Below the pieces are notes generated by a model. That model made no database searches, was not told where the DNA came from, and was given only the letters and a program-made list of their open reading frames with translations. The position numbers and the translations under genes were made by a program. Below are positions 6,141 to 55,675 of a DNA stretch of 64,000 nt, one piece after another (position 1 is the first letter of the stretch; each line of letters begins with the position of its first letter). This DNA is from an uncultured Gammaproteobacteria bacterium. GTDB taxonomy: Bacteria > Patescibacteriota > Patescibacteriia > JACQRZ01. The DNA lies in NCBI GenBank assembly GCA_964621085.1, contig CAZUKY010000004.1, positions 1,266 through 65,265 of the forward strand. Reading direction: 5' to 3'.

Positions 6141-6144
6141 ATAC

Positions 6145-6742: not shown

Positions 6743-6771
6743 AGTATGTAAATATAATCTTTTTTTGTCAA
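6743..6771 (-). promoter_or_regulatory. Sigma70-type promoter of the hyf-like operon (-35 TTGACA, 17-nt spacer, -10 CATACT)
   Basis: On the minus strand I read TTGACAaaaaaagattatatttaCATACT, about 75 nt upstream of the small-subunit start. Confidence 0.45.
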
Positions 6772-6831
6772 TGTATTTCGATGCAAATTGATCTGCCTGC
6801 TCTGTGAGGGAGCCCCAGAGACATATCAGTA

Positions 6832-8557: not shown

Positions 8558-8572
8558 ACGAAATACAATAAA

Positions 8573-8600
8573 GAAGTGTCAGATGACACTCCTTTATTGT
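8573..8600 (-). terminator. Weak hairpin downstream of atpC
   Basis: agtgtc-agat-gacact stem-loop flanked by an A-run and a T-run. It is short and marginal. Confidence 0.25.
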
Positions 8601-8621
8601 ATCAAAAATGCATTAGAGCGC

Positions 8622-9038: not shown

Positions 9039-9060
9039 AAATAATTCAAATACGGATCAA

Positions 9061-10446
<1,386 letters not shown>

Positions 10447-10563
10447 TTATTCACATTTGTTTTTGATAATAAATGTCCATGATCCTCTAGACAAATTTAA
10501 CGGTTCTGCTATCGTACCTTTTCGTCCTAATCCGCAGCCATTTTCGAGGAGGAGTCGAGAAGC

Positions 10564-11124: not shown

Positions 11125-11143
11125 GGACCCGGATCGCATGCAT

Positions 11144-11178
11144 TCCCTTTTTCGCCGGTACGGCCTGCCCGTATCGGC
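11144..11178 (+). terminator. Hairpin with T-tract after the inserted ORF
   Basis: gccggtacgg-cctgc-ccgtatcggc followed by gcttcttttt. Confidence 0.4.
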
Positions 11179-11198
11179 GCTTCTTTTTGAAGAACAAC

Positions 11199-12074: not shown

Positions 12075-12106
12075 GTTCGAGTTTCCTAGCTGATTAGCTT
12101 GTCGTT

Positions 12107-20445: not shown

Positions 20446-21936
20446 CTACTTTTTCGCGGCGCGCGCCTCACGCCTGCGCTGCCGGCGTTTTTCTACCTTT
20501 GTTCGCGCGGCGTAGGCGCGAAGAAACTCTTCAACCTCGCGAATCTCGTCGTCGCACAGCACAAATCCATCCAGGCTAATCTCGACCTCGGTCGTGTCAG
20601 TGCTCTTGAACGGCCAATCCAGCGGATACAGACCGAACTTTTCCCGAAGGTGCTTGTAGATGACGATGATCAGCTTTTCGACGAACCATGCGGCAATATC
20701 GGCATGCCGGCGGTCGTTGTCGAAGTCGAACTTCGGATACAGCCCGAGGAGGTACTCGAAGAACTCTTTCGGGGTTCGCGCCACAAACGGCGACTTGATC
20801 AGTCCGTTCGGCTGCGGCGTAAAGGCGTTCTGTCCCATCTGCTTCGCGAGATAGAAAAGCTTTGCCGCGAGCAACCCAAGATCAGCGCGTTTGACCCACT
20901 TGCGCAGCGGAACAAGCCAGAAGATCAGGAGATGCAAATCGAAGTTGTATCTCCGCAAATACGTCCGGAACGCCTTGCCCTCGGCCACTGATTTCAGGAT
21001 CCGATGACTTGCCCGCGGGGTGAGGTACTCCAGCCCATTGCAGTAAAACTTATCAGTGCCATAGAGCGTGCGATTGCGCGCATTCGAACGAATCGTTCCG
21101 TTAAGGCATGCTTGAAACGCAGCGGCTGTGTAATAGAGCCTGTCCTGCGTCAAGAGCGCCTGATTCATGTCCGAGTCCCGCGTTGGAAAGTATCGATCGA
21201 ATCCATCGAATATCCCCGCGGCGTGATTCAGTCGGAAGTCCTTGCGCCGCTCGATCCCGTCGACATCAACACGGCATGACCGTGCGACCTTCCACTTCGT
21301 CTCCTCGTCGACTTCCGCGCCGACGACTGCGTCGAAGTCAGCAAACGGAAGCTCCGCATCGAGAAGCCGGCGATCGAATTCCTTTGGAAACCGCCGCGCC
21401 ACCAGACGCTTCAAGACGTACCGAGAGCCGCCACCCTTGAGCGCGTACGCGTCTCGCGAAATGCCAAGGCGCTTTGATGGCCAACGAACGCCGTTTGCCT
21501 TCAGGTCTGCCCGCATCTCGTCATCAAGCTCGAAGACTTCCCAGTCGACCGGATCGCCCTTGTCCTCGGCGATGAAGTTCTCCGAGGTCATCTTTATCAC
21601 ATCCATGGTCCACTGAGAGACCGTCTCCTCATTTGCGGTACGGAAGTCGATGTCGTCAGCGCAATACTGATTGAAGACATCCTGCGCGACGACGAGTCCG
21701 GCCGCCTTGATCTCTACGATCACCGGCTCCGGAAGACGTTTCTCGGGATCGCTCTCCAGGACCGTTTTCTTCAATTCTTGAAAAAGGACGATAAAGAGTC
21801 TCCGGGGGTCTTTTGTGTCGCGAAGCGTCGTAACTAGTCGTTCGCGAAATTCCTGGAAGTTTGCTGACACCCTCTCTGCTTCACTCGGATCGAGCGTCAG
21901 CAACATGTTCTGGTCGGGCGTCTTTGTTTCTGACAC
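20446..21936 (-). CDS. Hypothetical 496-aa protein with a basic C-terminal tail. A possible G[GS]…DxD nucleotidyltransferase-like patch is uncertain.
   Basis: The promoter TTGACC-N17-TATACT lies at 21993-22021 and the ORF has a GTG start. It contains LKGGGSRYV…DFDAVVGAEVD. I recognise no known family. Confidence 0.55.
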   Translation of the reverse strand: MSETKTPDQNMLLTLDPSEAERVSANFQEFRERLVTTLRDTKDPRRLFIVLFQELKKTVLESDPEKRLPEPVIVEIKAAGLVVAQDVFNQYCADDIDFRTANEETVSQWTMDVIKMTSENFIAEDKGDPVDWEVFELDDEMRADLKANGVRWPSKRLGISRDAYALKGGGSRYVLKRLVARRFPKEFDRRLLDAELPFADFDAVVGAEVDEETKWKVARSCRVDVDGIERRKDFRLNHAAGIFDGFDRYFPTRDSDMNQALLTQDRLYYTAAAFQACLNGTIRSNARNRTLYGTDKFYCNGLEYLTPRASHRILKSVAEGKAFRTYLRRYNFDLHLLIFWLVPLRKWVKRADLGLLAAKLFYLAKQMGQNAFTPQPNGLIKSPFVARTPKEFFEYLLGLYPKFDFDNDRRHADIAAWFVEKLIIVIYKHLREKFGLYPLDWPFKSTDTTEVEISLDGFVLCDDEIREVEEFLRAYAARTKVEKRRQRRREARAAKK

Positions 21937-25548: not shown

Positions 25549-27117
25549 CTATCTTCGTCCACTTCTCCGCTTTCTCTGAAAACTGACCGCAAACCGGTGT
25601 GCCTCATCGCGGATAGCGCGCAGAAGCTGCAGGGCCGAACTTTTCTGAGGAAGACGCAGCGGTGTGCGCACCCACGGCACGTAGATTTCCTCGAGACGTT
25701 TGGCAAGGCCGATGGCCGGCACAGCGAGCGAGAGACGACTTAAGGCGCGCATGGCGCTGTTGAGCTGGCCGCGGCCGCCGTCAATGACCAAAAGATCGGG
25801 CGCGTCTTCCTTCCCATCAAGGATCCGTGTCCCGTACCGTGTTACGATCTCGGCGATCATTGCGGTGTCATTGCTTCCCTCGACTGTTTTTCCGATGAAC
25901 TTCCGGTAGGCGCTCTTTTTCGGCTGGCCGTTTGCAAATACGACAAGGGAGCCGACATTTTGCGTTCCCGCCAGATGCGAGATATCGATGCACGCGATCG
26001 TGCGCGGCACTGTCTTTAAGCGAATAACGCGCTGAAGTTCGGAGAGCCGCCCTCCCCCGTCGCCGAGTTTCGCAGCAATGTTTTTACGCACGAGCTCGAT
26101 CAGCTTTTTTTTGATGCCTTTTTGCGGCACCGTAATAATGACGCTTCGCCCTGCAATATGAGTCAGATAGTCTTGTAAGGCAGATTGATCGGGAATTTTT
26201 TCAGGAATGACGACCTCATGGGGAATCTTTCCGGCACCGGAGTAATAGCGATGAATAAAATCGGCAAGCGCTTCGGTGCCGGACGCAACGAGCAGCTCGT
26301 CCAAATCAAATGAAAATTCTTTCCGACCGGAAATGATTCCGCGGTCAAAATGGAACAGCTCGACAAGTATCTCGCCGTCGGATCGCCCGTACGCGATCAC
26401 ATCCTGGTCGGTTCGCTTCGGTGCGGAAACTTTTTGCTCGTCAAGGAGGCGCAAGGCGGATAACTGGTCGCGATAGATTTTTGCCGCCTCGAAACGCTGC
26501 TGGGCGGCCGCCTCCTTCATCATTGTTTCAACATTACGCATCACGCTTTCGTAGTCGCCCTTGATAAATTTTTCCGCCTGGCGAATCTGCTCCAGATATT
26601 CACCCTGCGAGATAACGCCAATGCATGCCCCGCTGCAAAGGTTGAGATGATAGCGCGAGCAGGGACGTCCCTTTTGTTTTGAAGTACAGAAACGGAAAAT
26701 GCGATTGATGTTCTTCAGAATCGCGTTGCGCGCCGCGGCCGACGGGAAGGGACCATAATGCTTGGCGCCAGACGAAATCTTTCGTGCAATCACAAACCGC
26801 GGATACGGTTCTTTTGTCAGGGTAATATAGGCATACCGACCGGTTGACTGCAGATCGATGTTGTATTTTGGATGATATTTCCCGATTAGCTGCGCCTCAA
26901 GGATGAGCGCCTCTACCTCAGTATCGGTTACGATCGTCTCGATATCTGCGATGTTGGCAACAAGCGCTTGCGTTTTGAAATCCCGCGACTGCGGATAGGA
27001 GCTCACGCGTTTGCGGATGTTCTTTGCCTTGCCGACATAAATCACGGTGTCTTCTGCATTTTTCATGAGGTAGCACCCCGGGTGCGTTGGCAGTTTTTTG
27101 ATGAGTGAGTTGTCCAC
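25549..27117 (-). CDS. uvrC: Excinuclease ABC subunit C
   Basis: GIY-YIG N-terminus (GCYLMKNAEDTVIYVGKAKNIRKR). The ORF-track N-terminal extension to 27516 is an artefact of the antisense open frame. The likely start is GTG 27117 or ATG 27066. Confidence 0.85.
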   Translation of the reverse strand: MDNSLIKKLPTHPGCYLMKNAEDTVIYVGKAKNIRKRVSSYPQSRDFKTQALVANIADIETIVTDTEVEALILEAQLIGKYHPKYNIDLQSTGRYAYITLTKEPYPRFVIARKISSGAKHYGPFPSAAARNAILKNINRIFRFCTSKQKGRPCSRYHLNLCSGACIGVISQGEYLEQIRQAEKFIKGDYESVMRNVETMMKEAAAQQRFEAAKIYRDQLSALRLLDEQKVSAPKRTDQDVIAYGRSDGEILVELFHFDRGIISGRKEFSFDLDELLVASGTEALADFIHRYYSGAGKIPHEVVIPEKIPDQSALQDYLTHIAGRSVIITVPQKGIKKKLIELVRKNIAAKLGDGGGRLSELQRVIRLKTVPRTIACIDISHLAGTQNVGSLVVFANGQPKKSAYRKFIGKTVEGSNDTAMIAEIVTRYGTRILDGKEDAPDLLVIDGGRGQLNSAMRALSRLSLAVPAIGLAKRLEEIYVPWVRTPLRLPQKSSALQLLRAIRDEAHRFAVSFQRKRRSGRR

Positions 27118-27124
27118 AATCGTA

Positions 27125-27153
27125 TTGACAATTTTTCGAAAAAATCGTAGTAT
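27125..27153 (+). promoter_or_regulatory. Promoter TTGACA-N17-TAGTAT
   Basis: Upstream of the 27208 ORF, with an AGGAGAG SD. Confidence 0.45.
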
Positions 27154-27207
27154 GATCGAATCGTTCTTCCCGCGTTTTTTGTTGTAGCAAAGGAGAGATT
27201 CAGGCTC

Positions 27208-27507
27208 ATGACCGCCGATCCCCGTCTCGAACCCCCGAAAGCTGTCGCCACCACTGCTCCCTTCCCTCCGAAGGGACCGCATACCACCCAGCCCAATGAC
27301 TACCGCCTGCCCCAGCCGACCATCTCGCCCGACGAAGACTCGTTCGGGCAGCGACTCGCAAAGCTCGTCAAGGAGGAGTGGAATGCCATCCCGGCAGTCC
27401 AAGGCATCAAGCGACTCTGGGAGGTAAATCCATGGGGCGTGATCGGCATTGCCATCATCCTGACGATGGCCATAGTCGCTATCATCGGCTCCCTGCCCCC
27501 CAACTAG
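27208..27507 (+). CDS. Small Pro-rich protein with a C-terminal TM anchor (99 aa), GC-rich
   Basis: MTADPRLEPPKAVATTAPFPPKGPHTTQPNDYRLPQP…GVIGIAIILTMAIVAIIGSLPPN, with promoter, SD and terminator. Confidence 0.5.
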   Translation: MTADPRLEPPKAVATTAPFPPKGPHTTQPNDYRLPQPTISPDEDSFGQRLAKLVKEEWNAIPAVQGIKRLWEVNPWGVIGIAIILTMAIVAIIGSLPPN

Positions 27508-27525
27508 CACCAACATGAACGCGCC

Positions 27526-27563: not shown

Positions 27564-27608
27564 GAGTCTATAGAGAAATAATCTTCTTGGTCATTTCTCT
27601 ATAGACTC
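27562..27608. repeat. Perfect 16-bp inverted repeat (gagtctatagagaaat … atttctctatagactc). One arm is the last codons of uvrA.
   Basis: Read directly from the sequence. It is a 13-nt loop hairpin straddling the uvrA stop codon. Confidence 0.6.
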
Positions 27609-30458
27609 AGTGAGAACTTTTTTCAAAAAGCGTCCGGTATGACTCCCCTTTGCTTTTGCAACCTCTTCCGGTGTTCCAGCTGCGACGATCGTGCCGCCGG
27701 CGTCTCCGCCATCCGGGCCCAGATCGATGAGGTAGTCGGCGGTCTTGATGACATCCAGATTGTGCTCGATAACCAGTACGGTATTTCCTTTTTCCACGAG
27801 ACGCTGCAAGACAGCAAGGAGTTTTTTCACATCCTCGAAGTGGAGGCCGGTCGTCGGCTCGTCGAGAAGATAGAGTGTGCGGCCGGTATCGCGCCGCGAG
27901 AGCTCGGCTGCAAGTTTGATGCGCTGCGCCTCGCCGCCGGAAAGCGTGGTCGCCGACTGGCCAAGCTGGATATACCCCAAACCGACATCGAACAGTGTCG
28001 AGAGCTTGTTTTTGATCCGCGGAATCGCCCCGAAGAATATCATCGCCTCTTCGACGGTCATGGCAAGGACATCGGCGATCGTCTTTTCTTTATATTGTAC
28101 GGACAACGTCTCTTCGTCATAGCGCTTGCCGCCGCAGACCTCGCACGGAATGTACACGTCCGGAAGGAAGTGCATCTCGATTTTGATCAGGCCGTCGCCC
28201 TCGCAATTTCCGCACCGCCCTTCCGCAACATTAAAACTGAAACGTCCGGGCAGGTATCCGCGCACCTTCGCCTCTTTTGTCGAAGCAAAGAGCTCGCGGA
28301 TAAAGGTGAAAACGCCCGTATAGGTTGCCGGATTGGAACGCGGGGTTCTGCCGATCGGGTTTTGATCGATGATGATCGCCTTATCAAGGTACGCAAGGCC
28401 ATCGATGCGATCGTATACACCCGGCTGCTCCAGACTGCCGGAAAAATGCTTGGCAAGAATCCGATACAGCGTCTCGTTGACGAGTGTGCTTTTCCCGCTG
28501 CCCGAAACGCCGGTGACACAACAAAAGACCGACAACGGGAACTTCGCCTCGATATTCTTCAAGTTATGCTCCCGTGCGCCCGAAACCGTCAGGAAACCGC
28601 GCGGCACCCGGCGGCGCGCAGGAATGCTGATTTTTTCCTTTCCCGCCAAATAGCGGCCGGTTAACGACCCCTTCGCCTTCCCGATCACACTCGGCGCGCC
28701 CGAAAAAACAACCTCTCCGCCGTGCACGCCGGCGCCAGGGCCGATATCGATAAGGTGATCGCTGGCGCGCATCGTCTCCTCGTCGTGCTCGACAACAACA
28801 ACCGTATTGCCGATATCGCGCAGGTTTTGGAGTGTTGCGATCAGACGCTCGTTATCCCGCTGGTGCAATCCGATCGACGGCTCGTCAAGAATATAGAGCA
28901 CGCCGCGCAACTCGGAGCCGATCTGGGTTGCCAAATGAATACGCTGCGCCTCGCCGCCGGAGAGCGTCCCGGCACGGCGGGAAAGGGTCAGGTACTCAAG
29001 GCCGACATTAAGAAGAAATGCGAGCCGCGCCTTGATCTCCTTGATGATCTGGCCTGCAATCTTTTTTTGCGTATCGGAAAGCGAGAGACCGTCAAGAAAC
29101 GCTGCCGCCTCCCGCAAGTGCAGATCCGTGAAGTCGATGATCGAGATATCTCCGATAGTCACCGCAAGGCTTTCGGCGCGCAGGCGCTTCCCGCCACAGG
29201 AAGGGCACGGGCTTTCGCGCATGAAGCGCGCGATCTCTGCGCGCTTCTCATCCGAGTCGGTTGCGGCATACATGCGCTGAAGCTGGGGAATCACGCCCTC
29301 ATACGCTCCCCGATAGCGGTATGAGCTCCCGGTAGAAAATTTCAAGTCGATGTCCATTTCCTCGTCGGTACCATAGAGGATCGTGCGGACAACGTCCTTG
29401 GGGAGCTGTTTGATCGGTTTCCATGGATCAAACTTATAGTATGAGGCCAGGTGCTCGAGCATCTGGCGTTTCATACCCATCATGAGCGACCGCCACGGGG
29501 CGATCGCGCCTTCCATCAGCGAGATGCTCGTATCCGGAATAACCAAGTCCTCGTCAAACTCCTGGATAACGCCGATGCCGTGGCACTGGTGGCAGGCGCC
29601 CTGCGGCGCGTTGAACGAAAACATGCGCGGAGCCAGCTCATCAAAACTCGTGCCGCAGTCGATACATGCCAGGTGCTGGCTGTGCAACGTCTCTGTGTGC
29701 TTGGGCGCATTGACGTTTGCCGCGGTCTCCGTGCGTTCTGCCAGGACGCGCACAAATCCGTCTGCGTGACGAAGCGCGGCCTCGACCGCTTCTTGAATGC
29801 GCGGCTTCTCTTCGGCAGTCGCCTCGATGCGGTCAACGACAACATCAATCGTGTGGTGCATGTACCGCTTCAAAAGAATTTTTTCGGTGCCGAGGTTGTA
29901 AAAAACGCCGTCGACGCGCACGCGCGTAAAACCTTGTTTTTGGAGATCTGAAAAAAGATAGTCGTACGTGCCCTTGCGCGAACGGATGAGGGGCGCGAGA
30001 ATTTGGACGCGCGCACCCGCGCAGGTTGCGATAATCTGGCGCGCGATCGAGTTCGCGTCTTGGCGCGCGATCAGCTTTTTGCACTGGGGGCAGTGCGGCG
30101 TGCCGATACGTGCGTACAGAAGACGGAGATAGTCGTAAATTTCCGTGACCGTGCCGACGGTCGAGCGCGGATTTGCCGAAAGCTTTTTCTGCTGGATCGC
30201 AATGGCTGGCGAAAGGCCCTTGATCGAGTCGACATCAGGCTTGTTCATAACGCCCAAAAACTGCCGCGCATATGCCGACAGGCTCTCAACATAGCGGCGC
30301 TGCCCCTCCGCATACAGCGTATCGAACGCAAGGCTGCTTTTCCCGCTGCCAGACAACCCCGTAATGACGGTCAAGGCATTGATCGGAATGTCGGCGTCGA
30401 TGTTTTTCAAATTATGCTGCCGCGCCCCGCGGATCGAGATAAACTCCTGGTCTTTCAT
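27591..30458 (-). CDS. uvrA: Excinuclease ABC subunit A
   Basis: 955 aa with two ABC ATPase modules and an N-terminus matching E. coli UvrA (GLSGSGKSSLAFDTLYAEGQRRYVESLSAYARQFLG). Confidence 0.97.
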   Translation of the reverse strand: MKDQEFISIRGARQHNLKNIDADIPINALTVITGLSGSGKSSLAFDTLYAEGQRRYVESLSAYARQFLGVMNKPDVDSIKGLSPAIAIQQKKLSANPRSTVGTVTEIYDYLRLLYARIGTPHCPQCKKLIARQDANSIARQIIATCAGARVQILAPLIRSRKGTYDYLFSDLQKQGFTRVRVDGVFYNLGTEKILLKRYMHHTIDVVVDRIEATAEEKPRIQEAVEAALRHADGFVRVLAERTETAANVNAPKHTETLHSQHLACIDCGTSFDELAPRMFSFNAPQGACHQCHGIGVIQEFDEDLVIPDTSISLMEGAIAPWRSLMMGMKRQMLEHLASYYKFDPWKPIKQLPKDVVRTILYGTDEEMDIDLKFSTGSSYRYRGAYEGVIPQLQRMYAATDSDEKRAEIARFMRESPCPSCGGKRLRAESLAVTIGDISIIDFTDLHLREAAAFLDGLSLSDTQKKIAGQIIKEIKARLAFLLNVGLEYLTLSRRAGTLSGGEAQRIHLATQIGSELRGVLYILDEPSIGLHQRDNERLIATLQNLRDIGNTVVVVEHDEETMRASDHLIDIGPGAGVHGGEVVFSGAPSVIGKAKGSLTGRYLAGKEKISIPARRRVPRGFLTVSGAREHNLKNIEAKFPLSVFCCVTGVSGSGKSTLVNETLYRILAKHFSGSLEQPGVYDRIDGLAYLDKAIIIDQNPIGRTPRSNPATYTGVFTFIRELFASTKEAKVRGYLPGRFSFNVAEGRCGNCEGDGLIKIEMHFLPDVYIPCEVCGGKRYDEETLSVQYKEKTIADVLAMTVEEAMIFFGAIPRIKNKLSTLFDVGLGYIQLGQSATTLSGGEAQRIKLAAELSRRDTGRTLYLLDEPTTGLHFEDVKKLLAVLQRLVEKGNTVLVIEHNLDVIKTADYLIDLGPDGGDAGGTIVAAGTPEEVAKAKGSHTGRFLKKVLTESIEK

Positions 30459-30524: not shown

Positions 30525-31963
30525 TTATACGCCGACCAACCGCTTCGTCGCGAGAAATTTGATATGGTATGCGGTCACGGCGACGCCGATGGCGACCGTG
30601 AGCAAGTTCGGAAGATACGGCGCGATCGCCCAGAGGGTCACAAAGCCGTAAAACAATGCTGCTGCTGCGACCAAAAATATGCGCAGCGCATGAGGACGCG
30701 CAGCAGGAGGCAGGTCCAAATTGAGTTTCAAGAGAAGCGGCGGGTAGAGCCACATCGTCGCTGCGGAGAGACACGCGGAAAGGACCAGAAGGAAAAACGG
30801 CTGTTTAAAGCTCGGGATAACAACCGAAAGGAGGAGAATTCCAACCCCAGCGAGGAGTGCAAGTTGGCTAATCCCTCGCTCGTTCAGCCGTGCGATGTTT
30901 CCTAAAAACGACCGAATGCCGTTTTCGCGCACAGGCGTAAGGAGGCGATGCGTCAGGCGGCCGATCGCATCGAGAATCGTCAGGTTTGCCATGATAAAGA
31001 GAAGGATTCCGGAAAGCCCGAAGAGCGTTCCGAGAAACGGAAAGGCCGCATTGAGCGCAGCAATTTCGGCAACAAGCACGCCGAATCCCTGCGCAGAGCC
31101 GAGCGGCAGGAGCAGTCGTCCCAGATACGCGAGCAGGAAGATCGTGAATACATTCGCAAGTACGAAGAGCAAAAAATGCTCTTTATTGATCATTGAAAAC
31201 CACTGGCGGAAATTCCTCTTGGACTCCGACGAAGTGATCTCGACGCGCTGCCGCTCTTCTGCCGGCAAACCCGCAACGCCGTACCCCTTTGCAAGCACCC
31301 ACTCGCTCTGCACGAGATTCAAAACGCCCGCAACTCCGCCATAGGCAAGTGCTGCCAAGAAATCAAAACGCGGCATTTCCGCCGGAATGTGCCCCCACTG
31401 AAACAGGCCAACGATCCCCTCCCAAAATAATGCCGGGTCGAAACGCAGCAAAACGGTGAATAAAATGATTCCCATCGCGCCCGCGAGCCCGATCTGCGCG
31501 ATTTTTTCCATGAGTCGATAACTGGCGGGATGGCGAAAAATCGGAATGAGACTCAAAAACAAGGCAATTGAAAACGCAAGGCCGATCTGGCGGGCATGCT
31601 CACCGCTCGCGCCAAGAATGACTGCGATAAGGTTTCCGGCGGTCGTGATCCATGCGGGCCAGACAAGCGCGGCGACAACTGTCACCGCAAAAAGAATCGC
31701 GAGCCAACGGGTCTGCCCGACCAGACTCGCCTCGACGCTCTTTCCGGTAACAAGCGTATAGCGCTCGATCTCGATGTTGACGATAAACTGCAGGAGCAGA
31801 ATGATCGGAATCGGCTAGAGGATCGCCATGCCGTAATTCGCGACCAGGTTCGGCCAGAGGAGCATCTCTCCCCCGTTCATGGAAAGCGCAACAAAAACAA
31901 CGCTCGGCCCGATCATCTGCCAGAGCGTTCTTTTGAGTGCGGGGAATACGATGCGAGATTCCA
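30525..31963 (-). pseudogene. Nramp/MntH-family divalent-cation transporter homologue, interrupted by an in-frame TAG (about 31806-31808) at a conserved Trp. Its metal-site motif is divergent (NGGE instead of DPGN).
   Basis: ATG at 31961-31963. Translation is MESRIVFPALKRTLWQMIGPSVVFVALSMNGGEMLLWPNLVANYGMAIL*PIPIILLLQFIV…, continuing into the ORF-track 30525-31685 frame. It aligns to MntH [45 protein letters not shown], with the stop falling at the LLW tryptophan. Confidence 0.55.
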
Positions 31964-32085
31964 TTCGATTGATTTCAAAAACTCCAGCGTGGACCCGGCG
32001 GGACTTGCACCCGCTTACCTGCCTGTCAAGAGCAGTGTATTACTCCATATACGACGGGCCCTCGAGTCCACTTTCATATAGTAAC

Positions 32086-32281: not shown

Positions 32282-34765
32282 TCACTTCCGAAAATACTTA
32301 TGGAACGCAGCCCTAAATTCGAGAGAGTAATGAGTGAAATCGCCACTCTTTGTTTTGTACTTTGCATAGTGTCCCCCATCGGTGTGTTTTCCTAGCTGGA
32401 GCGCTTTACCTTCATTGGTTTGGAGAAACAAGTTTATTCTTTTTTGAAGCGTTTCATGAGTAATTCCAAGCTGCTTTGCCCACATCTCACAGTTCCACCA
32501 ATTTTCTGGCGCTTCTTGAGTCTTCCACCACTTTTCATATGCAGCCCTGAATTCGGGAGAATAATGAGTGAAATCGCCACCTGAAACTGTATATATCGCA
32601 TAGTGCCCTTCTTCAGTATGTTTTCCTGGCTGGAGCGCTTTACCTTCATTGGTTTGGAGAAACAAGTTTATTCTTTTTTGAAGCGTATCGCCTTTAATTC
32701 CAAGCTGCTTTGCCCACATCTTACTGCGCCACCAACTTTCCGGCGCTTCTTGAGTCTTCCACCACCCTTCATACGCAGTCCTAAACTCAGGAGAATAGTG
32801 AAAAAAATCGCCGCCTTGAACTGTATAATTCGCATAGTGTCCTTCTTCAGTATGTTTTCCTGGCTGGAGCGCTTTACCTTCATTGGTTTGGAGAAACAAG
32901 TTTATTCTTTTTTGAAGCGTATCGCCTTTAATTCCAAGCTGCTTTGCCCACATCTTACTGCGCCACCAACTTTCCGGCGCTTCTTGAGTCTTCCACCACC
33001 CTTCATACGCAGTCCTAAACTCAGGAGAATAGTGAAAAAAATCGCCGCCTTGAACTGTATAATTCGCAAACCATCCCCCTTCGGCATATTTTCCTTGCCT
33101 GATCACTTTGCCCTCCCTAGTTTGAAGAAATAAGCTGATTCTAGTTTGTAAAGTATGATTACCAATACCAAGTTCCTTTGCCCACGCTGCACAAGTTAGC
33201 CATCTTTCAGGAACGAATTCCATGGCAGCACCCATCTCCCGCGTTACGCGCATGATTTCATCGGCACTAAAGACGATAGAAAGCCCGTCAATACGCAGAT
33301 CGGCCATCCGTCGCACTCCCGGCGGGAGATCTATTTCTTCTCGGGGCGATTCTTGCCGTGCAGGTCCCGGGAAAAAGGCACCTTGAGCAATTTCAGAAAA
33401 AAGGATCTGGCGAAGGTCATTACCATCCGCATCCCTATCGATAAACTCAACAATAAAGGCATGTTTTTGAGGGTTACTTGCATCCAAGCGCAGGACGCGA
33501 CCGCCGCGCTGCTCGGCTACGACACGAGAGAGCGTAGGACGAAGGTTAAGACAGACGCTTGACTTGGGAACATCAAAGCCTTCGATAAGAATATCGGCGT
33601 TGCAAAGGACTTTTATCTCTCCGCTGGCAAGCTGCCTTTTGAGCTCGCGCTGCTTGCCTGACGGAGTATTTCCACTGATGGCCGCTGAGGAGACACCGGC
33701 TTCGTTCAGCATTGATGCAAGTCTTTCAGCATGAGCAACCCCGACGCAGTAGGCCACTGTTTGATAATTTGCAAATGCTTCCACGCACATCTTAACCGCC
33801 GCCATGTTGCGAGTTTCAATATTGACTGCTCGGGCAAGATCTTTTTCATCATACTCTCCGCCGCTCGTCACGCGTACATTGGAAAGATTGGCGGCAGTCC
33901 TGACAGCCATGACCGAGAACGGCGAAAGAGCGCCTTCATCTACCGCCTCGCGGATCGAGACGGTGTGGATTTCGGTTGCGAGAAGATTTCCCACCTGCTT
34001 CTGTTCGGTAAAAACAGGCGTTGCCGTAAATCCAAGCTTGAGCGTACCGGGAAATTCTCCCACTGCTTTTTTACGAGCATCGCTCAAGGATCGATGCACT
34101 TCGTCGAGAATAAGGCAGTCGTAATCGTCGGGATTGATAGTTTTGTTTTTGAGTTGGCTCAGCAGCGAATCGTATGTGATAATCGTCACGTCTTTGCCAT
34201 GCTCTTTTGCTTCGGAATAGATCCTGCCTACATCAATGTCCTCGGCGAATTCTTCAAATGCTTCCTGTGTCTGCTCGACAAGCAATTTTCTCGGAACAAC
34301 AATGAGCGACTTGAGGCCTGTCGCCTGGAGAAATTCAGTAAAAATCACTGTTTTCCCATAGCCGGTCGGGAGCTTGATATACCCCTCTCGTCCCCCTTGC
34401 TCAAGAAACGCGCGCAATGACTCAAAAACCGTGACCTGGTGCTCCCGGAGTGTTTTTTCTACATTATTTTCTTCCTTGTGAGATTGTATGTAGGAATCGA
34501 GCGAGTTGAGAGCAGAGAGCCACTTCTTCATGTTCATGAGCTCCTCTTCTGATGGAGCAGGAAGACTTCCTCTTTCTTTCCGAAGTTTCGTCAGATACAT
34601 GTCGTATCTTTCTTTGTATTTTGCCTTGATTTCGTTGAGCGATAGTGAAAAAATACCGTCCGTCTCTGAAGGCGGTATAAGATCGACGCCAATAGCTTGA
34701 GATGCTTCCCCGACTTGCTTCTTGAGCTCTGGCAACTCTTTCCGTAAAGGGATTTCGGACGGCAT
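32282..34765 (-). CDS. SF2 DEAH-type helicase (Res/XPB-like ATPase core) with four C-terminal tandem repeats of about 78 aa
   Basis: Motif I is PTGYGKT, motif II is DEVH, motif III is FTATP and motif VI is QRGGRVLR. The C-terminal third is 4x (WW.SKMWAKQLGIKGDTLQKRINLFLQTNEGKALQPGKHTEEGHYANYTVQGGDFFHYSPEFRTAYEGWWKTQEAPES). Confidence 0.8.
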   Translation of the reverse strand: MPSEIPLRKELPELKKQVGEASQAIGVDLIPPSETDGIFSLSLNEIKAKYKERYDMYLTKLRKERGSLPAPSEEELMNMKKWLSALNSLDSYIQSHKEENNVEKTLREHQVTVFESLRAFLEQGGREGYIKLPTGYGKTVIFTEFLQATGLKSLIVVPRKLLVEQTQEAFEEFAEDIDVGRIYSEAKEHGKDVTIITYDSLLSQLKNKTINPDDYDCLILDEVHRSLSDARKKAVGEFPGTLKLGFTATPVFTEQKQVGNLLATEIHTVSIREAVDEGALSPFSVMAVRTAANLSNVRVTSGGEYDEKDLARAVNIETRNMAAVKMCVEAFANYQTVAYCVGVAHAERLASMLNEAGVSSAAISGNTPSGKQRELKRQLASGEIKVLCNADILIEGFDVPKSSVCLNLRPTLSRVVAEQRGGRVLRLDASNPQKHAFIVEFIDRDADGNDLRQILFSEIAQGAFFPGPARQESPREEIDLPPGVRRMADLRIDGLSIVFSADEIMRVTREMGAAMEFVPERWLTCAAWAKELGIGNHTLQTRISLFLQTREGKVIRQGKYAEGGWFANYTVQGGDFFHYSPEFRTAYEGWWKTQEAPESWWRSKMWAKQLGIKGDTLQKRINLFLQTNEGKALQPGKHTEEGHYANYTVQGGDFFHYSPEFRTAYEGWWKTQEAPESWWRSKMWAKQLGIKGDTLQKRINLFLQTNEGKALQPGKHTEEGHYAIYTVSGGDFTHYSPEFRAAYEKWWKTQEAPENWWNCEMWAKQLGITHETLQKRINLFLQTNEGKALQLGKHTDGGHYAKYKTKSGDFTHYSLEFRAAFHKYFRK
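32290..33230. repeat. Tandem direct repeat, about 4 x 234 bp, coding. The two central units (about 32606-32839 and 32840-33073) are identical and the outer ones diverge.
   Basis: The period of 234 bp is seen both in the DNA and in the repeating six-frame ORFs (32434-32649, 32668-32883, 32902-33087). Confidence 0.8.
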
Positions 34766-34834
34766 AGCATTTTATCTACCAATCAATGGTACTCTATCAA
34801 AAAGACGGCCGCGTTTTCAAGACAGTCGTGCAAG

Positions 34835-36907
34835 TCAAGTTTTTTCAGCAACTCCCGGACGGCGTCGACTGCGTTTCGAACGGACAGAAACATCGTCTTG
34901 GCTGCTGTGCTCTGCGAGATCTTTTTTTGAATCGCTCCGAACATCGATCGCCCCTTTCTTGCGCTTTCCTTTTTTCGGAAGCTTTCCCGCGTGAAGCTCT
35001 TTCAACCGGTCGCGCAGCACGATTGCGCGCTCGAAGTCGAGCCGCTCGACAGCCTCGCGGAGCTCTTGATGCAGCTCGATCTCGGTCTTTTTTACGTCTT
35101 TCGGGCTCTCGGCGGCATCTGGCTCGACGATCGACTCGCGGATCGCCTTTATAATGCTTGCGGGAGTGATCCCGTGTTCGGCATTGTACGCCTCTTGAAT
35201 GCTGCGCCGCCGCTCGGTCTCTTGAATCGCACGCGTCATCGAGTCGGTCGTCTTGTCGGCGTACATGATCACCCGCCCGTTCACGTTTCGCGCAGCGCGC
35301 CCGATCGTCTGAATCAGACTCGTCTCATTACGCAAAAAGCCCTCCTTATCCGCATCTATGATCGCAACCAGGCTGACCTCGGGAATATCAAGACCCTCGC
35401 GGAGCAGGTTGATGCCGACAAGCACGTCAAATTTTCCCAATCGAAGATCCTTAATAATAACACTTCGCTCCAGCGTCTCGATCTCGCTGTGCAGATAGCG
35501 CGCCCGGACATCATTGCCGATCAGGTATTCGGCCAACTCCTCGGCAGATCGTTTTGTCAAGGCGGTAACCAGAACGCGACTCCCCTGCTCCACGGCTGCA
35601 CAGATCTCATCCTTCAAATGCTCGATGTAGCCGCCCATCGGCCGCACCTCGATACGGGGATCCAGCAGTCCGGTAGGGCGCACAAGCTGCTCGACGATCT
35701 GGCCGGCCTGTTCCCGCTCGTAGGGGCCCGGCGTTGCGCTTGTGAAGATGGTATGTCCCAAGTACCGTTCAAATTCATGGAACTTCAGCGGCCGATTATC
35801 ATATGCGGACGGCAAGCGGAAACCAAAGTCGATCAGATTTTTCTTGCGCGACACGTCGCCAAAATACATACCGCGCACCTGCGGCACCGTGACATGGCTC
35901 TCGTCGATGCAGAGCAGAAAGTCCTCGGAAAAAGGATTATGTTTGAAAAAATCCAGAAGCGTGTACGGCGGCTCGCCTGGCTTCCGACCATCGAAGTGGC
36001 GCGAGTAGTTCTCGATTCCTTTGCAGTATCCGAGCGTCTCCATCATCTCGATGTCGTAGTGCGTCCGCTGCTCTAGCCGGTGCGCCTCCAACATCGGCAG
36101 CTGCGGCAGACGCCCGTGCAACTCCTCCCGAATTGCCGCAATCGCACGCTTCCGCTTGTCCTCGGGCGCCATGAACGGCTTGGCGGGAAAAACCTTCAAC
36201 GCATCGTGTGTGAGCAGCGTCTCATGCGTGATCGCATCCAGCGTGGTTATTGACTCGAGCTCGTTTCCGAAAAATTCAAACCGACAAATATCCCCGCCAA
36301 AACCTTGCATGAGATCGACAACATCGCCGCGGACACGAAAACGGCCAGCCGCCAGATCCGTGTCATTCCGCTCATACAGCAGGTCCACAAGCCGCGCGAG
36401 CAGTTCCTTGCGCGAGATCTTCTGCCCCTTTTCAAGAGAGATAATGCTTTGAGAAAAATCAAACGGGCTGCCAAGTGAGTAAATGCACGACACAGAGGAA
36501 ACGACGATCGTATCCGGCCGCGACATCAGCGCCGCGATGGATTCGATGCGAAGCTGGTCGAGCTTTTCATTGATCTGCGTCTCTTTTTCAATGTAGGTGT
36601 CGGTCTGCGGAAGATAGCTTTCCGGCTGATAGTAGTCGTAGTACGAGACGAAGTAGCAGACCTTGTTGTTGGGGAAGAATTCCTTGAACTCGTTGTAGAG
36701 CTGGGCGGCAAGCGTCTTGTTGTGCGCAAGGACGAGCGTCGGCCTCTGAACCTCATTAATGACGTTTGCGAGCGTGTACGTCTTTCCGCTTCCGGTCACC
36801 CCGAGCAGCACTTGCTTTTCAAAACGCGAAAAACCATCCGCAAGCGCACGGATGGCCTTCGGCTGGTCGCCGGCCGGAGCGTAGGGTGAGACGAGCTGGA
36901 ATGCCAT
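34835..36907 (-). CDS. uvrB: Excinuclease ABC subunit B
   Basis: The ATG at [26 protein letters not shown]… matches the UvrB N-terminus, followed by [10 protein letters not shown]. The ORF-track start at 36928 is an extension. Confidence 0.95.
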
Positions 36908-36955
36908 ATGAAGGCTTCCATTGTACAACGCTCTCCTGAAGTTGTCACATACCCC

Positions 36956-38740
36956 TTAATCAACGAGCAATCCGACAATTGTTGCGACTGGCGCTCCCTG
37001 TCCTTCTGCGGCATTAGAAACATAAAAAATCGAAGTCGCTCCTTTTTTCTTTGCGGTAAATTTTACTTCCAACACGTTACGTGAATCTCCGTCACTCGAA
37101 GGAACTGATGTGATATCGGGAGACGCCTCGAGAACTTCATCGTCATAATCTATCGGGTCTTTGCGAAAACCAGCAGAAAGCTGCGGATGCGTGAGTGCTT
37201 TAAATGTAAATGTATCGCCAATACGCGCACGATAGATATAATTCGATACGACATAGCCCGAATGAGAAAGAATTTGTTCTTGCGATGTAACATAGTGAAG
37301 TTCCTGAGAGTTAGAACCAGGATCAATGTACCAAAAATCGATTGTATCTTCTCGTACTCGCTGCACCATCTTTCCCACTGCTTTCTTTTGTAAGTCTCGA
37401 TCAATAGTAAGTTTTTTATTGACTTCAAGAGGACTGTATCCATTGCGCAATTCGTCGGCGTCCGAATGTCCGTCGCCATCAGTGTCGAGATTTTTCGGAT
37501 TAGTGCCATACGCTTCCTCAAAGGCGTCTGACAATCCATCACCATCGCTATCAGGTGTCTGACCGCTATACATCCTCACCGGAAGCGAATGCAGTTGTTC
37601 AAGCGTGATGTTTGTGAATGAGGAAAGGGGTGTCAGTGATGCAAGGATAGTGTCAATTTCCGCCTGGTTTGCGCCTTTAATAAGAAATGAATAGCTTTCT
37701 AGAGGGAAATACACATCGATAGTAGTGAAACCTTGCTGAGAATTGCTGGGATAGAGAATCGCGTTCCAATTGTCTGTATCAATGATATGCGGAGACGATG
37801 AAGAACGATTAATAATACTTTTCATTAGAAGCAAGCTTAACTTCAATTCAAGCGCTTGAACCGATTGGAGCGGAAAAGGAGGTAATAAGTCAGCGAATGT
37901 ATGTTTAAGAAGATATACCGTACTCTCGTAGCGAGTCATGGGTGTATGTGCCTTGCCTGCTAACTTCGCAAAAATGGCGGCAATTCTACTGGTTGATTCG
38001 GCAGCCTCTTTCGAATTGTCGAATGCTCGTCGCGTTCCACCTAACACGCTTATCGTTCGTTCATCGAATTTCAAACCAAGCGAAGGAGTTTCCTTATCTC
38101 GATTATCGCGAATATCCGTTATCTCACCCCATGCTTCTGGCGCGCGAAACCTCAAACCGAAATATTCATAGGTGTCCCCATACGGTTGAGGAGAAGAAAG
38201 CGTGTAAGACTGCGGAACGACGTTGATACTATTCCATGCTTTTCGAAATATCCACGCAAACATAGCATATTGAACAACCACAAAAATGAAGCTGAAAACA
38301 ATAATGCTACCAATGATCTTTTTCCATGGATGCCGCTCTACACGATCCATTTTTCTGCCAGGAAAAGCGAATGTCGCATACAGCGTTCGACCACTCGCAA
38401 CAACCATGAGCGCAGCTAGCAGAATATTGGAGCCGCCGTCTCCTGAGCCGAGAAGGATTTGCATTGTAGAAAACAGCGAAAAAATCGTAAAGAAGAATAT
38501 GAGAGCTGCAACAAATCTACTCTTCAATAAAAAAAGCAAACCGGCCAAGACAAAAAGCGCACCACCTTCGTATGCATACACTCTGCCAAACAAAAGAAAT
38601 CCGAGCGTGCCTTGAATAAGGGCAATGCTAAAAAATATGACGCAACTAACTTTGATCGCAGCAAGCGCATCATCTCTTGTTTTGATTTTTCCAAACAAGT
38701 TATACTTCTTTTTTTCTTGCACTGCGGATACCCCATCCAT
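36956..38740 (-). CDS. Membrane protein (N-terminal TM helices) with an extracytoplasmic domain containing thrombospondin-type-3-like Ca-binding repeats
   Basis: 594 aa with DSDGDGLSDAFEEAYGTNPKNLDTDGDGHSDADELRNGYSPL. Confidence 0.5.
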   Translation of the reverse strand: MDGVSAVQEKKKYNLFGKIKTRDDALAAIKVSCVIFFSIALIQGTLGFLLFGRVYAYEGGALFVLAGLLFLLKSRFVAALIFFFTIFSLFSTMQILLGSGDGGSNILLAALMVVASGRTLYATFAFPGRKMDRVERHPWKKIIGSIIVFSFIFVVVQYAMFAWIFRKAWNSINVVPQSYTLSSPQPYGDTYEYFGLRFRAPEAWGEITDIRDNRDKETPSLGLKFDERTISVLGGTRRAFDNSKEAAESTSRIAAIFAKLAGKAHTPMTRYESTVYLLKHTFADLLPPFPLQSVQALELKLSLLLMKSIINRSSSSPHIIDTDNWNAILYPSNSQQGFTTIDVYFPLESYSFLIKGANQAEIDTILASLTPLSSFTNITLEQLHSLPVRMYSGQTPDSDGDGLSDAFEEAYGTNPKNLDTDGDGHSDADELRNGYSPLEVNKKLTIDRDLQKKAVGKMVQRVREDTIDFWYIDPGSNSQELHYVTSQEQILSHSGYVVSNYIYRARIGDTFTFKALTHPQLSAGFRKDPIDYDDEVLEASPDITSVPSSDGDSRNVLEVKFTAKKKGATSIFYVSNAAEGQGAPVATIVGLLVD

Positions 38741-38786: not shown

Positions 38787-40265
38787 TTAGCTTATTATTC
38801 TCTCCTTGTATGTTTTGACAGCAGGCAGCTCGTCGATCTCTTTTTGCGTAAAAATATGCAGCTCGATAAACGCATTCCGCATTTCACGGTATTCTTCACC
38901 GCTGTCGTGTTGGCTTATACTCAGAGCACGCTCGATCGCAGTTTCTGCCGCCTGACGGATAGCCGGATGTCGGCCAAAATCCCGTTCTGAAACGATCCCA
39001 TACCGTGCGATTTCCTTCGCGTACTCCCGAAAGCTCTGCACATGCCCTCCATTGCCAAATATCTCAACGCCTTTCGCCAATATCTTTTCCCGCGGCCGCA
39101 CTGCATGCATCACTTCGTCTTCACTAATAATATGTCGCGAAGTAAACTCATGCACAGCTGTAAAAAAGGCAAGTACCCGTGCGGCGTCACCGTCTCCTAA
39201 AACCTCTGAACAACGCTTGACAGCGCGCGAACAAAGATCCGGATCCCGATGAAAAGTTGAAACATCAACAAGCCCGATTGAGGAATAGTCCGCAAGAGCG
39301 TTATCAAACTGGATGAGCTGTGAGGGCGACCCATCGCCGAAAATCTCAAGAAGCCGGTCATGCGCGCGTTCACGCAATCGAGAGGAAGCGACAATATCCT
39401 TCTCAGTAGCTAGACCGGACGCCTGGATGCGGGCAAGCCATCTCTTCAAACCAATAATTGCCTCCCATGAACCGTCTCCAAATTTCTCTTCAGCGACGTC
39501 GCATAAGAATGGAAAGAGATTTTCGTGCTCGGAAATTTCGTCACTTGAAAGGATGCCGAGTCGTTCAAATTGTTCGATAAACCGCTCGAAATGATCAGTG
39601 GAACGGATACTATGGGTAAGAATCTGGAGCGCGCCATTTTTTGTTCGAATGTCGGAAAATGCGTTTGGCGGTATGGATGAAAAATCACGAGCATCGTATT
39701 CGATCTCAAGAACATTCAATACCTGTAAAAGGTATACGAATTCCTCAAAGGCTTCCTGCTGGAGGAGTGATTCGAGCTGAGAAAGTCCGATTATTTTGAC
39801 TTGCTGAGTGAATGCGTTGCGCGATCCCTCTGCAAGTTTGTGGCGGAAATGCCGGATATGCTCGACGCCCGTTTCGGGAACATCGCGCCTGACCGATGAA
39901 AAAAATTGAACAATCGGGAGACGAAAACCTTCTTCTTGGGTCACCTGATTCGGAATACGGAAATCGCCTGACCGATCAAGCATATCCAGCGCCTCTGACA
40001 GTGTTTGGGCGCGCCCGGCCTTTATGTGGCCGCGGATGATTGTGTCAATTTTCGTCGCTTGTTCGGCTGTTAGCTTTTTTAATGAGGCGTCGGTTCCCGG
40101 AAAAAGCTCTTCGAAAAGTTCTGCATAGCGAGCACTCCTTTCCCGCGTTTGCCATTCAAAAATTCGCGGCGTCTCAAAACGCCGGACTGCTCGTTCGGTA
40201 AAAGAATCATCTTCCTGCTGAGTGCTTCTCATTTTCTCTCCTTCCGAGTTCATATCATTTTGCAC
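38787..40265 (-). CDS. Hypothetical soluble protein with internal FGDGS-containing repeats
   Basis: 492 aa. EKFGDGSWEAI…, EIFGDGSPSQL…, EVLGDGDAARV… and EIFGNGGHVQSF recur about every 40-50 aa. Its start is translationally coupled to the small basic ORF upstream. Confidence 0.5.
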   Translation of the reverse strand: MQNDMNSEGEKMRSTQQEDDSFTERAVRRFETPRIFEWQTRERSARYAELFEELFPGTDASLKKLTAEQATKIDTIIRGHIKAGRAQTLSEALDMLDRSGDFRIPNQVTQEEGFRLPIVQFFSSVRRDVPETGVEHIRHFRHKLAEGSRNAFTQQVKIIGLSQLESLLQQEAFEEFVYLLQVLNVLEIEYDARDFSSIPPNAFSDIRTKNGALQILTHSIRSTDHFERFIEQFERLGILSSDEISEHENLFPFLCDVAEEKFGDGSWEAIIGLKRWLARIQASGLATEKDIVASSRLRERAHDRLLEIFGDGSPSQLIQFDNALADYSSIGLVDVSTFHRDPDLCSRAVKRCSEVLGDGDAARVLAFFTAVHEFTSRHIISEDEVMHAVRPREKILAKGVEIFGNGGHVQSFREYAKEIARYGIVSERDFGRHPAIRQAAETAIERALSISQHDSGEEYREMRNAFIELHIFTQKEIDELPAVKTYKERIIS

Positions 40266-47647: not shown

Positions 47648-49010
47648 TCATACGATAGAAACGGTTTCTTTTTTCATGGTTTTCAGGGCAGCTTCGTGAT
47701 GCAAAACGAGATTTTCTATGTTGTATGCGCCCATGATCGGGGCCTCCGTAAAGCCATTCAATGCCGCACGCGCGAGCCAGCCGCTCTCGATCCAGTCCGT
47801 CAACCACTCATCGGCGTAGCGGGGATCCTCTTGCGAGATGCCGGCGCCGATCGTCTTGAGCCAGATGCGGTTGAAATCCTCCTGCGACCCGACAGACGGC
47901 GCCATAATGATAGGCAGCCCAAGGCCCGCATAAAAAGAGAGTTCTGAGGGCTTTGTCCACAACACGTCTGTGGTGCGCAAAAGGCGATTGAAACTCGCAA
48001 AATACTCGTGCTTGGTCTTCGCGAATAGGATAGTGATATTTTTTTCAAGAGCGCTTCCCAGCCGCAACCCGCGAATCGCGTCCGTGTAAAATTTTCGGAC
48101 CTCCTTCCGCGTGCCTGCGATCAAGTTCAGCCGGATCTTTCCTTCCAGCAACTTTTTGCGAAGACTGACAAGGATCTGTTCGCCGATATCGCTCTGCGCA
48201 CCCGCGCCCCCGACCGCAAATGTGATCGTAAACGGATGATTGGGCCGCGACGGGACGTATTTTTTCCCGATATGGTAATTGATGATGTGGCCGAATTTGT
48301 GCATCATGACGCTCCGCGGATCCAGATTCAAAAATCGCGCGCCGATATCTTTGCGCAGGACCTCCATCGCCGGACCGCCGATATTCTCTTTTGGCAGGGG
48401 AAAACCCGTGAAAAAGATATTCTCGCTGCGGATGCCATAGAGCTTCAATCGCTCGACGACCCTTTTGTTGGGCGCGAGATACTTGATGCGACTGCGCCGC
48501 GGATCGCGCGGCACCCAGGTGCGGCTCACGTCCGAGTCGCATACCTGCAGGTAGATATCTCCTTTGTATCCGTAAAATTCGGCGGCGAATGCCGGCAAGA
48601 AAAACGTGCAGATCAAGGGAAGATCCTGCCGCGCAGAAAGCACGTTGGTAAACAAATGCTTCCCAAGTCCGCCTTTGTGGATATAGTGCTCGGTTTGCAG
48701 TAGCTGGAGATTGGGATGCGAGAGATCGCGCTTCGGATAAAACGACGGGATCTCCTGAATCTTGTCGAATAGCTCAAAGATCGCGCGGCCGACGGCATTT
48801 TTTGCCTGCAGGCGCGAGACGAACTCATACCCCTCGCGGCTCTGGCGCCAGACATCGCGTTCCGCTTTTGGTAATCCCTTGTACTCGTTCATCGCGATAA
48901 CACCCTTGTGCGCGATATCGGTCAAAGGATAGGCGGCCCGCTGATGGCCGTATCCCATATCGACGGTGACCACCCAGGCTTTGTTGTTTTTTTTCAAACT
49001 CATAGCGACA
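47648..49010 (-). CDS. GT28-family glycosyltransferase, MGDG-synthase-like/MurG-like
   Basis: KAWVVTVDMGYGHQRAAY matches the GGGH N-terminal motif, and the C-terminal half reads …FAVGGAGAQSD…. Confidence 0.5.
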
Positions 49011-49074
49011 AGCAATGGGAATGCATGCCGTGAAGTATAGCATATTTTCTGCGGCGGGAAAAAATCTTTGCAGA

Positions 49075-55609: not shown

Positions 55610-55675
55610 ACGCGGTACATACTTTTGAAAAAAGAGAATTTCCTTAGCGAAGTATATCATTGTTGATGAGTACTG

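Follow-up and report, generated by a model that had tools for sequence, protein, structure and literature searches.

What is a helicase with a fourfold repeated tail doing between two genes of nucleotide excision repair (NER)? The question is raised by a stretch of 64,000 nucleotides from an uncultured bacterium (GenBank assembly GCA_964621085.1, contig CAZUKY010000004.1, positions 1,266 to 65,265), hereafter the window, in which a minus-strand open reading frame (ORF) at 32282-34765 encodes, from an ATG start, a protein of 827 amino acids (aa). An earlier reading of the letters alone (here the sequence-only reading) had described a superfamily 2 (SF2) helicase ending in four tandem copies of a domain that it did not recognise, and had suggested either a repair-coupled factor or a restriction-like defence component. 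We consider it somewhat better than an even bet (a probability of roughly 0.55) that the protein is instead a stand-alone double-stranded DNA (dsDNA) translocase or helicase of an uncharacterised family of the Patescibacteria, also known as the candidate phyla radiation (CPR), tethered to DNA by an array of winged helix-turn-helix (wHTH) units and not coupled to the uvr genes. The gene is apparently intact, and its parts are the following.

34791-34820, minus strand: promoter-like site, TTGAAA-18-TAGAGT preceded by a TG, within the 69 bp that separate uvrB from the helicase gene; a consensus match only, which may be the helicase's own promoter
34466-34765, minus strand: all-helical N-terminal domain, aa 1-100, from the family alignment and the full-length model
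33386-34465, minus strand: SF2 ATPase/translocase core, aa 101-460; RecA1 contains PTGYGKT (motif I), DEVH (motif II) and TAT (motif III), and RecA2 contains QRGGRVLR (motif VI)
33209-33385, minus strand: conserved linker, aa 461-519, with an I.I.GL.V..D.EE.MR.V element, from the alignment and the model
32975-33208, minus strand: repeat unit 1, aa 520-597, predicted winged helix-turn-helix and C-terminal helix (modelled helices 525-532, 536-548 and 581-592, hairpin 566-579)
32741-32974, minus strand: repeat unit 2, aa 598-675, predicted winged helix-turn-helix and C-terminal helix (unit model at a predicted local distance difference test score, pLDDT, of 85.8)
32507-32740, minus strand: repeat unit 3, aa 676-753, from the repeat register and the model
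32285-32506, minus strand: repeat unit 4, aa 754-827, last in the array and more basic (net charge +5) than the other three
32282-32284, minus strand: stop codon

The motor is the best understood part of the protein. All of the motifs on which the sequence-only reading had based its helicase assignment are present, namely LPTGYGKT (motif I), LILDEVH (motif II), GFTATP (motif III) and AEQRGGRVLR (motif VI), and Pfam finds ResIII (aa 104-251, E-value 4.5e-28, 98.6 bits) as well as DEAD (51.6 bits) and Helicase_C (45.2 bits, aa 332-427), each above its cut-off. The two RecA-like domains and motifs I, II, III and VI that define SF2 are thus in place, with a fold that is supported by the full-length AlphaFold model (pLDDT 86.6). 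In an alignment of 61 members of the helicase family every catalytic and ATPase motif residue is invariant, and because of this the ATPase is presumably active. The nearest solved proteins by sequence are SauUSI (PDB 7clg, E-value 3.5e-18; PMC7913695), archaeal XPBII, RadD, Rad25 and a type I R fragment. When the fold of the core is ranked against solved structures, SauUSI (22.5) is followed by CSB (22.4), INO80 (21.9), RadD (21.6) and XPBII (20.5), and the core belongs on the dsDNA-translocase side of SF2. None of the named families closest to it can claim the protein as a member, however: the NCBIfam models give 82 bits against a cut-off of 720 for RadD/YejH (NF053632; core only, aa 105-443), 72.4 against 610 for XPB (NF045503, repair_heli_XPB) and 72 against 550 for EcoAI R, about one tenth of what is called for, and the helicase therefore falls in none of the three.

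The differences from these relatives lie in the accessory regions. The core is similar to those of XPB/Rad25 and RadD (YejH), whereas what surrounds it, the N-terminal domain, the linker and the wHTH array, matches no family and is specific to this one. In XPB the accessory elements are an N-terminal damage-recognition domain, a RED motif after motif III and a thumb insertion; here the sequence past motif III reads VFTEQK, without a RED motif, and the N-terminal domain is all-helical. This domain, the only extra region at that end of the protein, is about 100 aa long, has no Pfam or NCBIfam match and is modelled as three helices (11-25, 37-64 and 73-97, pLDDT about 85-96), and R53, L86, N87, L89, D90 and Y92 are kept in at least 90% of the 61 aligned members. 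No nuclease family was found in the helicase protein with Pfam, NCBIfam or PADLOC, and the PADLOC matches that do occur are confined to the ATPase core, with scores to be expected of any SF2 motor. The protein differs in this respect from the SauUSI-type (type IV) and type I HsdR motors (PDB 7clg and 3h1t; PMC7913695), as it has neither a phospholipase D-like nor a PD-(D/E)xK nuclease and no HsdM/HsdS partners. Where SauUSI has an SRA-like target recognition domain (TRD), there is a tandem wHTH array, and at the N-terminus there is a small bundle of helices. Between core and array the linker is modelled with a strand at 496-498 and a helix at 501-513, and its consensus in the 61 members, PxIxIxGLxVITDxEEVMRIV, is common to proteins with wHTH arrays, with INT_rpt arrays and with other tails.

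The four tandem copies described in the sequence-only reading make up the C-terminal third and keep an exact register of 78 aa, with starts at aa 520, 598, 676 and 754. Tandem Repeats Finder scores the DNA at 32364-33068 at 1165, with a period of 234 nt, 3.0 copies and 92% matches, so that the fourfold repetition is far beyond chance. Units 2 and 3 differ by 9 synonymous and 5 non-synonymous codons, at identities of 92% (DNA) and 94% (protein); the more diverged units are unit 1, at 57-68% to the others, and unit 4, at 57-76%. That the repeat is not a recognised domain holds at the level of sequence families: a single unit has no match in Pfam (E-values up to 10), NCBIfam or PADLOC, and the whole tail reaches only sub-threshold Pfam scores (HTH_10 20.5 of 23.1, HTH_29 19.2 of 28.1, HTH_8 18.6 of 22). 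It does not hold at the level of the fold. An AlphaFold2 model of the unit, built from an alignment of 127 units of the helicase protein and its relatives (pLDDT 85.8, predicted template modelling score 0.70), gives a short strand, two helices (6-13 and 17-28), a beta-hairpin (47-60) and a further helix at the C-terminus (62-76), and in the full-length model this fold recurs in all four units. Judged from these models, the unit is a winged helix-turn-helix of the MerR/excisionase class with an added C-terminal helix, a known fold in an uncurated sequence family: strand, helix, turn, recognition helix and hairpin wing are all predicted, and the model resembles solved members of the class. The suspicion that a segment of the repeat looked like a helix-turn-helix was therefore well placed.

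Within the 127 units the invariant or nearly invariant residues are W3, L9, L13, I20, Y27, F47, G55, Y60 and the stretch S61-P62-E63-L64. As these are mostly hydrophobic or helix-capping, their role is suggested to be structural. Lysine and arginine are enriched on two surfaces, the recognition helix (55-79% at positions q22 and q28) and the wing (41-54%); together with the fusion to DNA motors, this enrichment gives indirect support to dsDNA binding by the units. The matching fold class includes pSK1 Par, RacA, BldC, Xis, TorI, AlpA and the N-terminal domains of TipA and BmrR (Pfam HTH_17, MerR clan). Unlike in those proteins, the units here are covalently concatenated, in four copies in this protein and up to 15 in relatives, and each has an extra C-terminal spacer helix and is part of a motor fusion. 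The studied units also remain under every Pfam helix-turn-helix threshold and contain a 12-aa insertion past the recognition helix.

This architecture is not unique, as it is shared by hundreds of uncultured CPR bacteria. A search with the whole protein finds at least 120 relatives above 439 bits; the named ones among them come from metagenome-assembled genomes (MAGs) of Pace-, Davies-, Kerfeld-, Magasanik-, Levy- or Staskawiczbacteria or simply of the 'Patescibacteria group', and their sole annotation is 'DEAD/DEAH box helicase' or 'Type III restriction enzyme, res subunit'. A search with the tail only returned no match, not even the protein itself (P0001), and the whole-protein search was used instead; the empty result is probably due to the word and bias filters of the search tool together with the divergence of this subtype, and is not read as uniqueness. 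The closest homologue is P0002, with 50% identity across 88% of the length and three units homologous to those of P0001. In the full alignment P0001 is 34-49% identical to the 60 other members and keeps every invariant column, and core identities of 35-50% are seen in many candidate phyla. With a manually iterated unit profile, 279 units were found in 59 of the 120 best relatives, from 1 to 10 in each, the first always near aa 515; P0001 belongs to this family, with its N-terminal domain, invariant core residues, linker and array from aa 520. The consensus of the units is EGWLTASALAKELGISRKTIKKLAEKYREEHPEWFKIFKDKKGKVTEYYSPELVELI, with the pattern EGWLT..LAKELGIS..TI.K.AEKYR..HPEWF....G...EYYSPELV..I. 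In some of these proteins the units match HTH_29, HTH_28, HTH_23 or HTH_17 in Pfam, and whole arrays pass the whole-protein cut-offs of HTH_29, HTH_28 and HTH_23 through the sum of many weak units. The PF26109 label precomputed for some of the relatives proved to be a weak match to WHD_BrxR and no dedicated family.

A further 46 of the 120 relatives carry arrays of a different repeat, INT_rpt (PF14882), in the same place; the two types never occur in one protein, and the remaining 15 relatives end in another tail or in none. N-terminal domain, core and linker element are kept whatever the type of tail, and the sister INT_rpt helicases are 47-51% identical to the studied protein over aa 1-510, so that the two groups share the three front parts and the presence of a C-terminal tandem array and differ in the repeat family. 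INT_rpt itself has no Pfam match in the studied protein, and a locally built INT_rpt profile matches nothing in the window. Homology between the wHTH repeat and INT_rpt is unsupported, with an hhalign probability of 51% over 11 columns only. The sole stretch that hhalign aligns is a brief motif found at corresponding positions of both units (KYR..HPEWF versus YKKHPGWPS), and this KY..HP.W-type motif may reflect either very distant homology or a common contact with the conserved helicase body.

Outside the helicase family the unit is more widespread still. When its profile was run exhaustively against 1.84 billion representatives, it was found in 1,087 clusters, 348 of them at E-values of 1e-30 or below, with up to 15 copies. 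The top 150 unit-bearing representatives include 34 helicases with an XPB-like core and a C-terminal array, 23 proteins with an N-terminal array and a SNF2 ATPase (21 of these also with Methyltransf_11) and 51 with an N-terminal domain of about 245 aa followed by the array. Since the array is fused to three different partners, two of which are DNA motors, it fits the description of a portable DNA-targeting module. The SNF2 proteins include giants of 1,100-1,830 aa (P0126, P0130, P0136, P0121 and P0211) with N-terminal arrays of 5-14 units, encoded by stand-alone genes (for instance at 1518-7013 of locus L170). The domain of about 245 aa, seen in P0122-P0125 and about 47 others (for instance at 8001-11855 of locus L171), has no Pfam match, is followed by 4-15 units and is marked by the motifs ILPP..G.G.G..PRT..N.P.MMR.SY..DEEGNATFVV. 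In gut MAGs of Alphaproteobacteria (Candidatus Enterousia and relatives, loci L064-L085), a helicase core of about 30% identity is followed by a long C-terminal region in which neither of the two repeat profiles has a match. A phage origin of the helicase was rejected, as IMG/VR viral contigs yielded only generic SF2 helicases (at most 31% identity over the full core, without the N-terminal domain or array) and a fold search of BFVD gave no match at E-values of 0.001 or below.

The arrays appear to have changed in more than one way. In P0001 and P0002 the units are 57-94% identical within each protein and 33-39% between the two, and because the identity within exceeds that between, the two arrays were expanded or homogenised recently and independently. 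For long arrays the picture is the reverse: in P0049 and P0039, with nine units each, and in P0016 and P0037, positional counterparts are mostly 52-100% identical, versus 23-40% for units within a protein. This comparison of sequences suggests that units in long arrays are kept by position and are not interchangeable in those lineages.

If the protein is indeed a stand-alone motor tethered by its tail, the plan of the family would be a helical N-terminal domain, a core of the XPB, RadD and type I R kind, a linker and a variable C-terminal tandem array. The four units, which would have arisen by recent local duplication, would bind dsDNA multivalently, with successive units arranged head-to-tail along the duplex, much as separate proteins of the Xis, BldC or RacA type are. 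The array would in this way anchor or load the ATP-driven motor on DNA, by analogy with the TRD of SauUSI or the gamma winged helix of FtsK. In FtsK and SpoIIIE the gamma domain is a C-terminal winged helix that reads the FtsK orienting polar sequences (KOPS) or the SpoIIIE recognition sequences (SRS) and loads and orients the dsDNA translocase. The likeness to it is one of function only, and no relation by sequence or family is claimed: FtsK is a hexameric pump of the RecA type and not an SF2 protein, and has one gamma domain per subunit, unlike the four-unit helicase studied here. Once loaded, the motor would translocate, unwind or remodel DNA or protein-DNA complexes, and the gene would work alone, without a dedicated partner. 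Its cellular role could lie in genome maintenance or in conflict.

Several observations weigh against this reading. In the studied protein's units the insertion of 12 aa follows directly after the recognition helix, and the basic residue of the consensus at q28 (in the YR..HPEWF motif) is replaced. The studied units are a divergent subtype, and their link to the family rests partly on P0002, on their position after the linker and on the predicted fold: a profile built without the units of P0001 and P0002 gives P0001 16.0 bits, compared with 7.1 for the best of 500 shuffles and 49.1 for P0002, and the units of P0001 match those of P0002 at E-values of 1e-6 to 1e-8. Lastly, a pattern-limited scan finds the family in about 112 of 185,579 species genomes, and such a sparse presence is uneasy to combine with an essential housekeeping role.

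The surroundings of the gene bear on what it may do. On the minus strand, with the helicase gene between the tRNA gene and uvrB, the window reads as follows.

25549-27516, minus strand: uvrC
27591-30458, minus strand: uvrA
30525-31685, minus strand: Nramp-like gene
31990-32061, minus strand: tRNA gene
34835-36928, minus strand: uvrB

The gene thus lies between uvrA and uvrB, as had been noted, with the tRNA and Nramp-like genes also between it and uvrA, and the three uvr genes fall within 11.4 kb. One could see here a UvrABC-linked helicase that acts at damage or lesion sites, is recruited to NER and is co-expressed with uvrB and uvrA. The helicase follows uvrB by 69 bp in the same direction, no terminator-like site was found in this spacer, uvrA and uvrC come next on the same strand, and the core resembles the repair helicases XPB and RadD. 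We nevertheless regard coupling to NER as very improbable. The resemblance to XPB and RadD stays far under family membership, and there is a promoter-like site ahead of the helicase. Of 78 loci from species-representative genomes only two have uvr genes within 8 kb, namely L060, with uvrA and uvrC within 7 kb, and L032, with uvrC. The gene of P0002 adjoins ftsE/ftsX and def, and other relatives adjoin mur/mraZ, ribosomal-protein genes or RNase III/sigma genes. The best named relatives of the window's UvrB (66-71% identity) come from Uhrbacteria and other Patescibacteria, and in Uhrbacteria-like relatives a syntenic backbone runs from xseA through radical-SAM and methyltransferase genes to uvrB and on to uvrA. 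Directly after uvrB these genomes have an ABC transporter (L086 and L087, in the latter with uvrA further on) or DinB and an S24 peptidase (L088), where the window has the helicase, the tRNA and the Nramp-like gene. The helicase also differs in composition, with a GC content of 47.5% and 46% GC at third codon positions (GC3), the latter 14-23 points off the uvr genes; the uvr and Nramp-like genes have 54-57% GC and 60-70% GC3. Because relatives carry other cargo here and the composition of the helicase differs, the best reading is that it sits in a variable slot of the uvrB-uvrA interval, and that its adjacency to the uvr genes is incidental; its position would then be one of insertion into a syntenic backbone. 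From the window and from L086, L087 and L088, this interval appears to be a recombination or insertion hotspot. A classical island at the 3' end of a tRNA gene was rejected as the origin of the GC-atypical helicase, since the helicase is on the 5' side of the tRNA gene.

Conflict or defence is an unlikely alternative. The protein would be a helicase-only anti-phage or anti-plasmid factor whose rapidly changing array recognises foreign or modified DNA, and whose motor strips or stalls replication or recruits a nuclease encoded elsewhere. The swapping of tails (wHTH, INT_rpt and others), copy numbers from 1 to 15 and recent duplications are a typical pattern of an arms race, and the sporadic distribution, atypical composition and variable slot agree with it, as do the AbiEii, recombinase and relaxase, or TraG-like genes next to some relatives and the sister architectures with SNF2 and methyltransferase. 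Set against this are the all-helical N-terminal domain, the lack of a nuclease domain and the generic nature of the PADLOC matches. The proposed restriction-like partnership finds no footing either: no hsdM/hsdS, nuclease or DNA-methyltransferase partner was found within about 10 kb in the window, and none recurs in the relatives' loci, where an unbiased clustering of 700 neighbouring ORFs found no family in more than 4 of 56 loci and the neighbours are mostly housekeeping genes. Moreover, the positional conservation of long arrays between orthologues speaks for purifying and not diversifying selection, and the identity of the core across many candidate phyla is consistent with long residence. 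A second alternative is that the units do not act on DNA, but bind protein or RNA, oligomerise or recruit partners, in which case the motor could act on RNA or ribonucleoprotein. The units are near neutral in charge, the structural neighbours of their fold include protein binders (CbpM, DafA, the IF2 N-domain and PCI-domain winged helices), and the INT_rpt arrays of the sister helicases are without an established DNA-binding function. We think this improbable, as basic residues gather on the recognition helix and wing, the surfaces with which the wHTH fold contacts DNA, and the array sits on motors of the dsDNA-translocase type (XPB-like and SNF2), not on cores of the DEAD-box RNA helicase type. 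It is also conceivable, if rather doubtful, that the arrays are modular, position-coded DNA readers, built from units of the MerR/Xis type and loosely like TALE (transcription activator-like effector) or zinc-finger arrays. They would then send at least three effectors (the XPB-like helicase, the SNF2-methyltransferase and the 245-aa domain) to composite or repeated sites; the positional conservation would mean that each unit reads its own sub-site, and INT_rpt arrays would be an alternative reader.

The components of the helicase, an SF2 motor and a winged helix-turn-helix, are known, and what is absent from curated libraries and from the literature found is the Patescibacteria family with its interchangeable arrays. 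Literature searches brought up no description of the family or its arrays, and one paper that mentions PF14882 merely lists it in a table of repeat-protein models. For the window itself the outcome is deflationary: the unit has a known fold, proteins built in this way are common, and the uvr genes are neighbours by coincidence. The gene does belong to a sizeable group of more than 1,000 repeat-bearing clusters, in which motors and other effectors carry exchangeable arrays of 1-15 small units of a nucleic-acid-binding type. The Patescibacteria make up a large share of bacterial diversity and, to our knowledge, hardly any of the proteins specific to their lineages have been studied. If modular DNA reading were true, the arrays would offer a new natural scaffold for targeting and a means to learn how these reduced genomes organise repair, replication or defence; if they are only avidity tethers, this is ordinary accessory-domain variation on an SF2 helicase.

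Some other features of the window deserve mention. The tRNA gene, 220 nt downstream of the helicase, is called by ARAGORN as tRNA-Ser with anticodon UGA, a variable loop of 5 nt and C37 (loop CUUGACA); bacterial tRNA-Ser normally has a long variable arm. The Rfam tRNA model gives 44.8 bits when the region is searched alone, and the gene is missed in a gathering scan of the whole window. Upstream of uvrB, where relatives have the radical-SAM and methyltransferase genes, there are two more genes of atypical composition, for a 594-aa protein with a bacterial TSP3 repeat (36956-38740, minus strand, GC 43.5%, GC3 39%) and for a 492-aa protein without a family match (38787-40265, minus strand, GC 48.8%). 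Four further minus-strand ORFs are without an NCBIfam match at E-values of 1e-10 or below: 52556-55660 (1034 aa), 55729-58065 (778 aa), 47648-49015 (455 aa) and 20446-21936 (496 aa). The host is apparently a Patescibacterium, and the metabolism of this group is usually described as minimal. At 1054-5852 and 9061-13627, both on the minus strand, the window encodes subunits resembling hydrogenase-4 and Mrp antiporters together with the alpha and beta subunits of F1 ATP synthase; of the membrane subunits, the HyfB-like one scores 630 bits (cut-off 667) and the HyfF-like one 456 bits.

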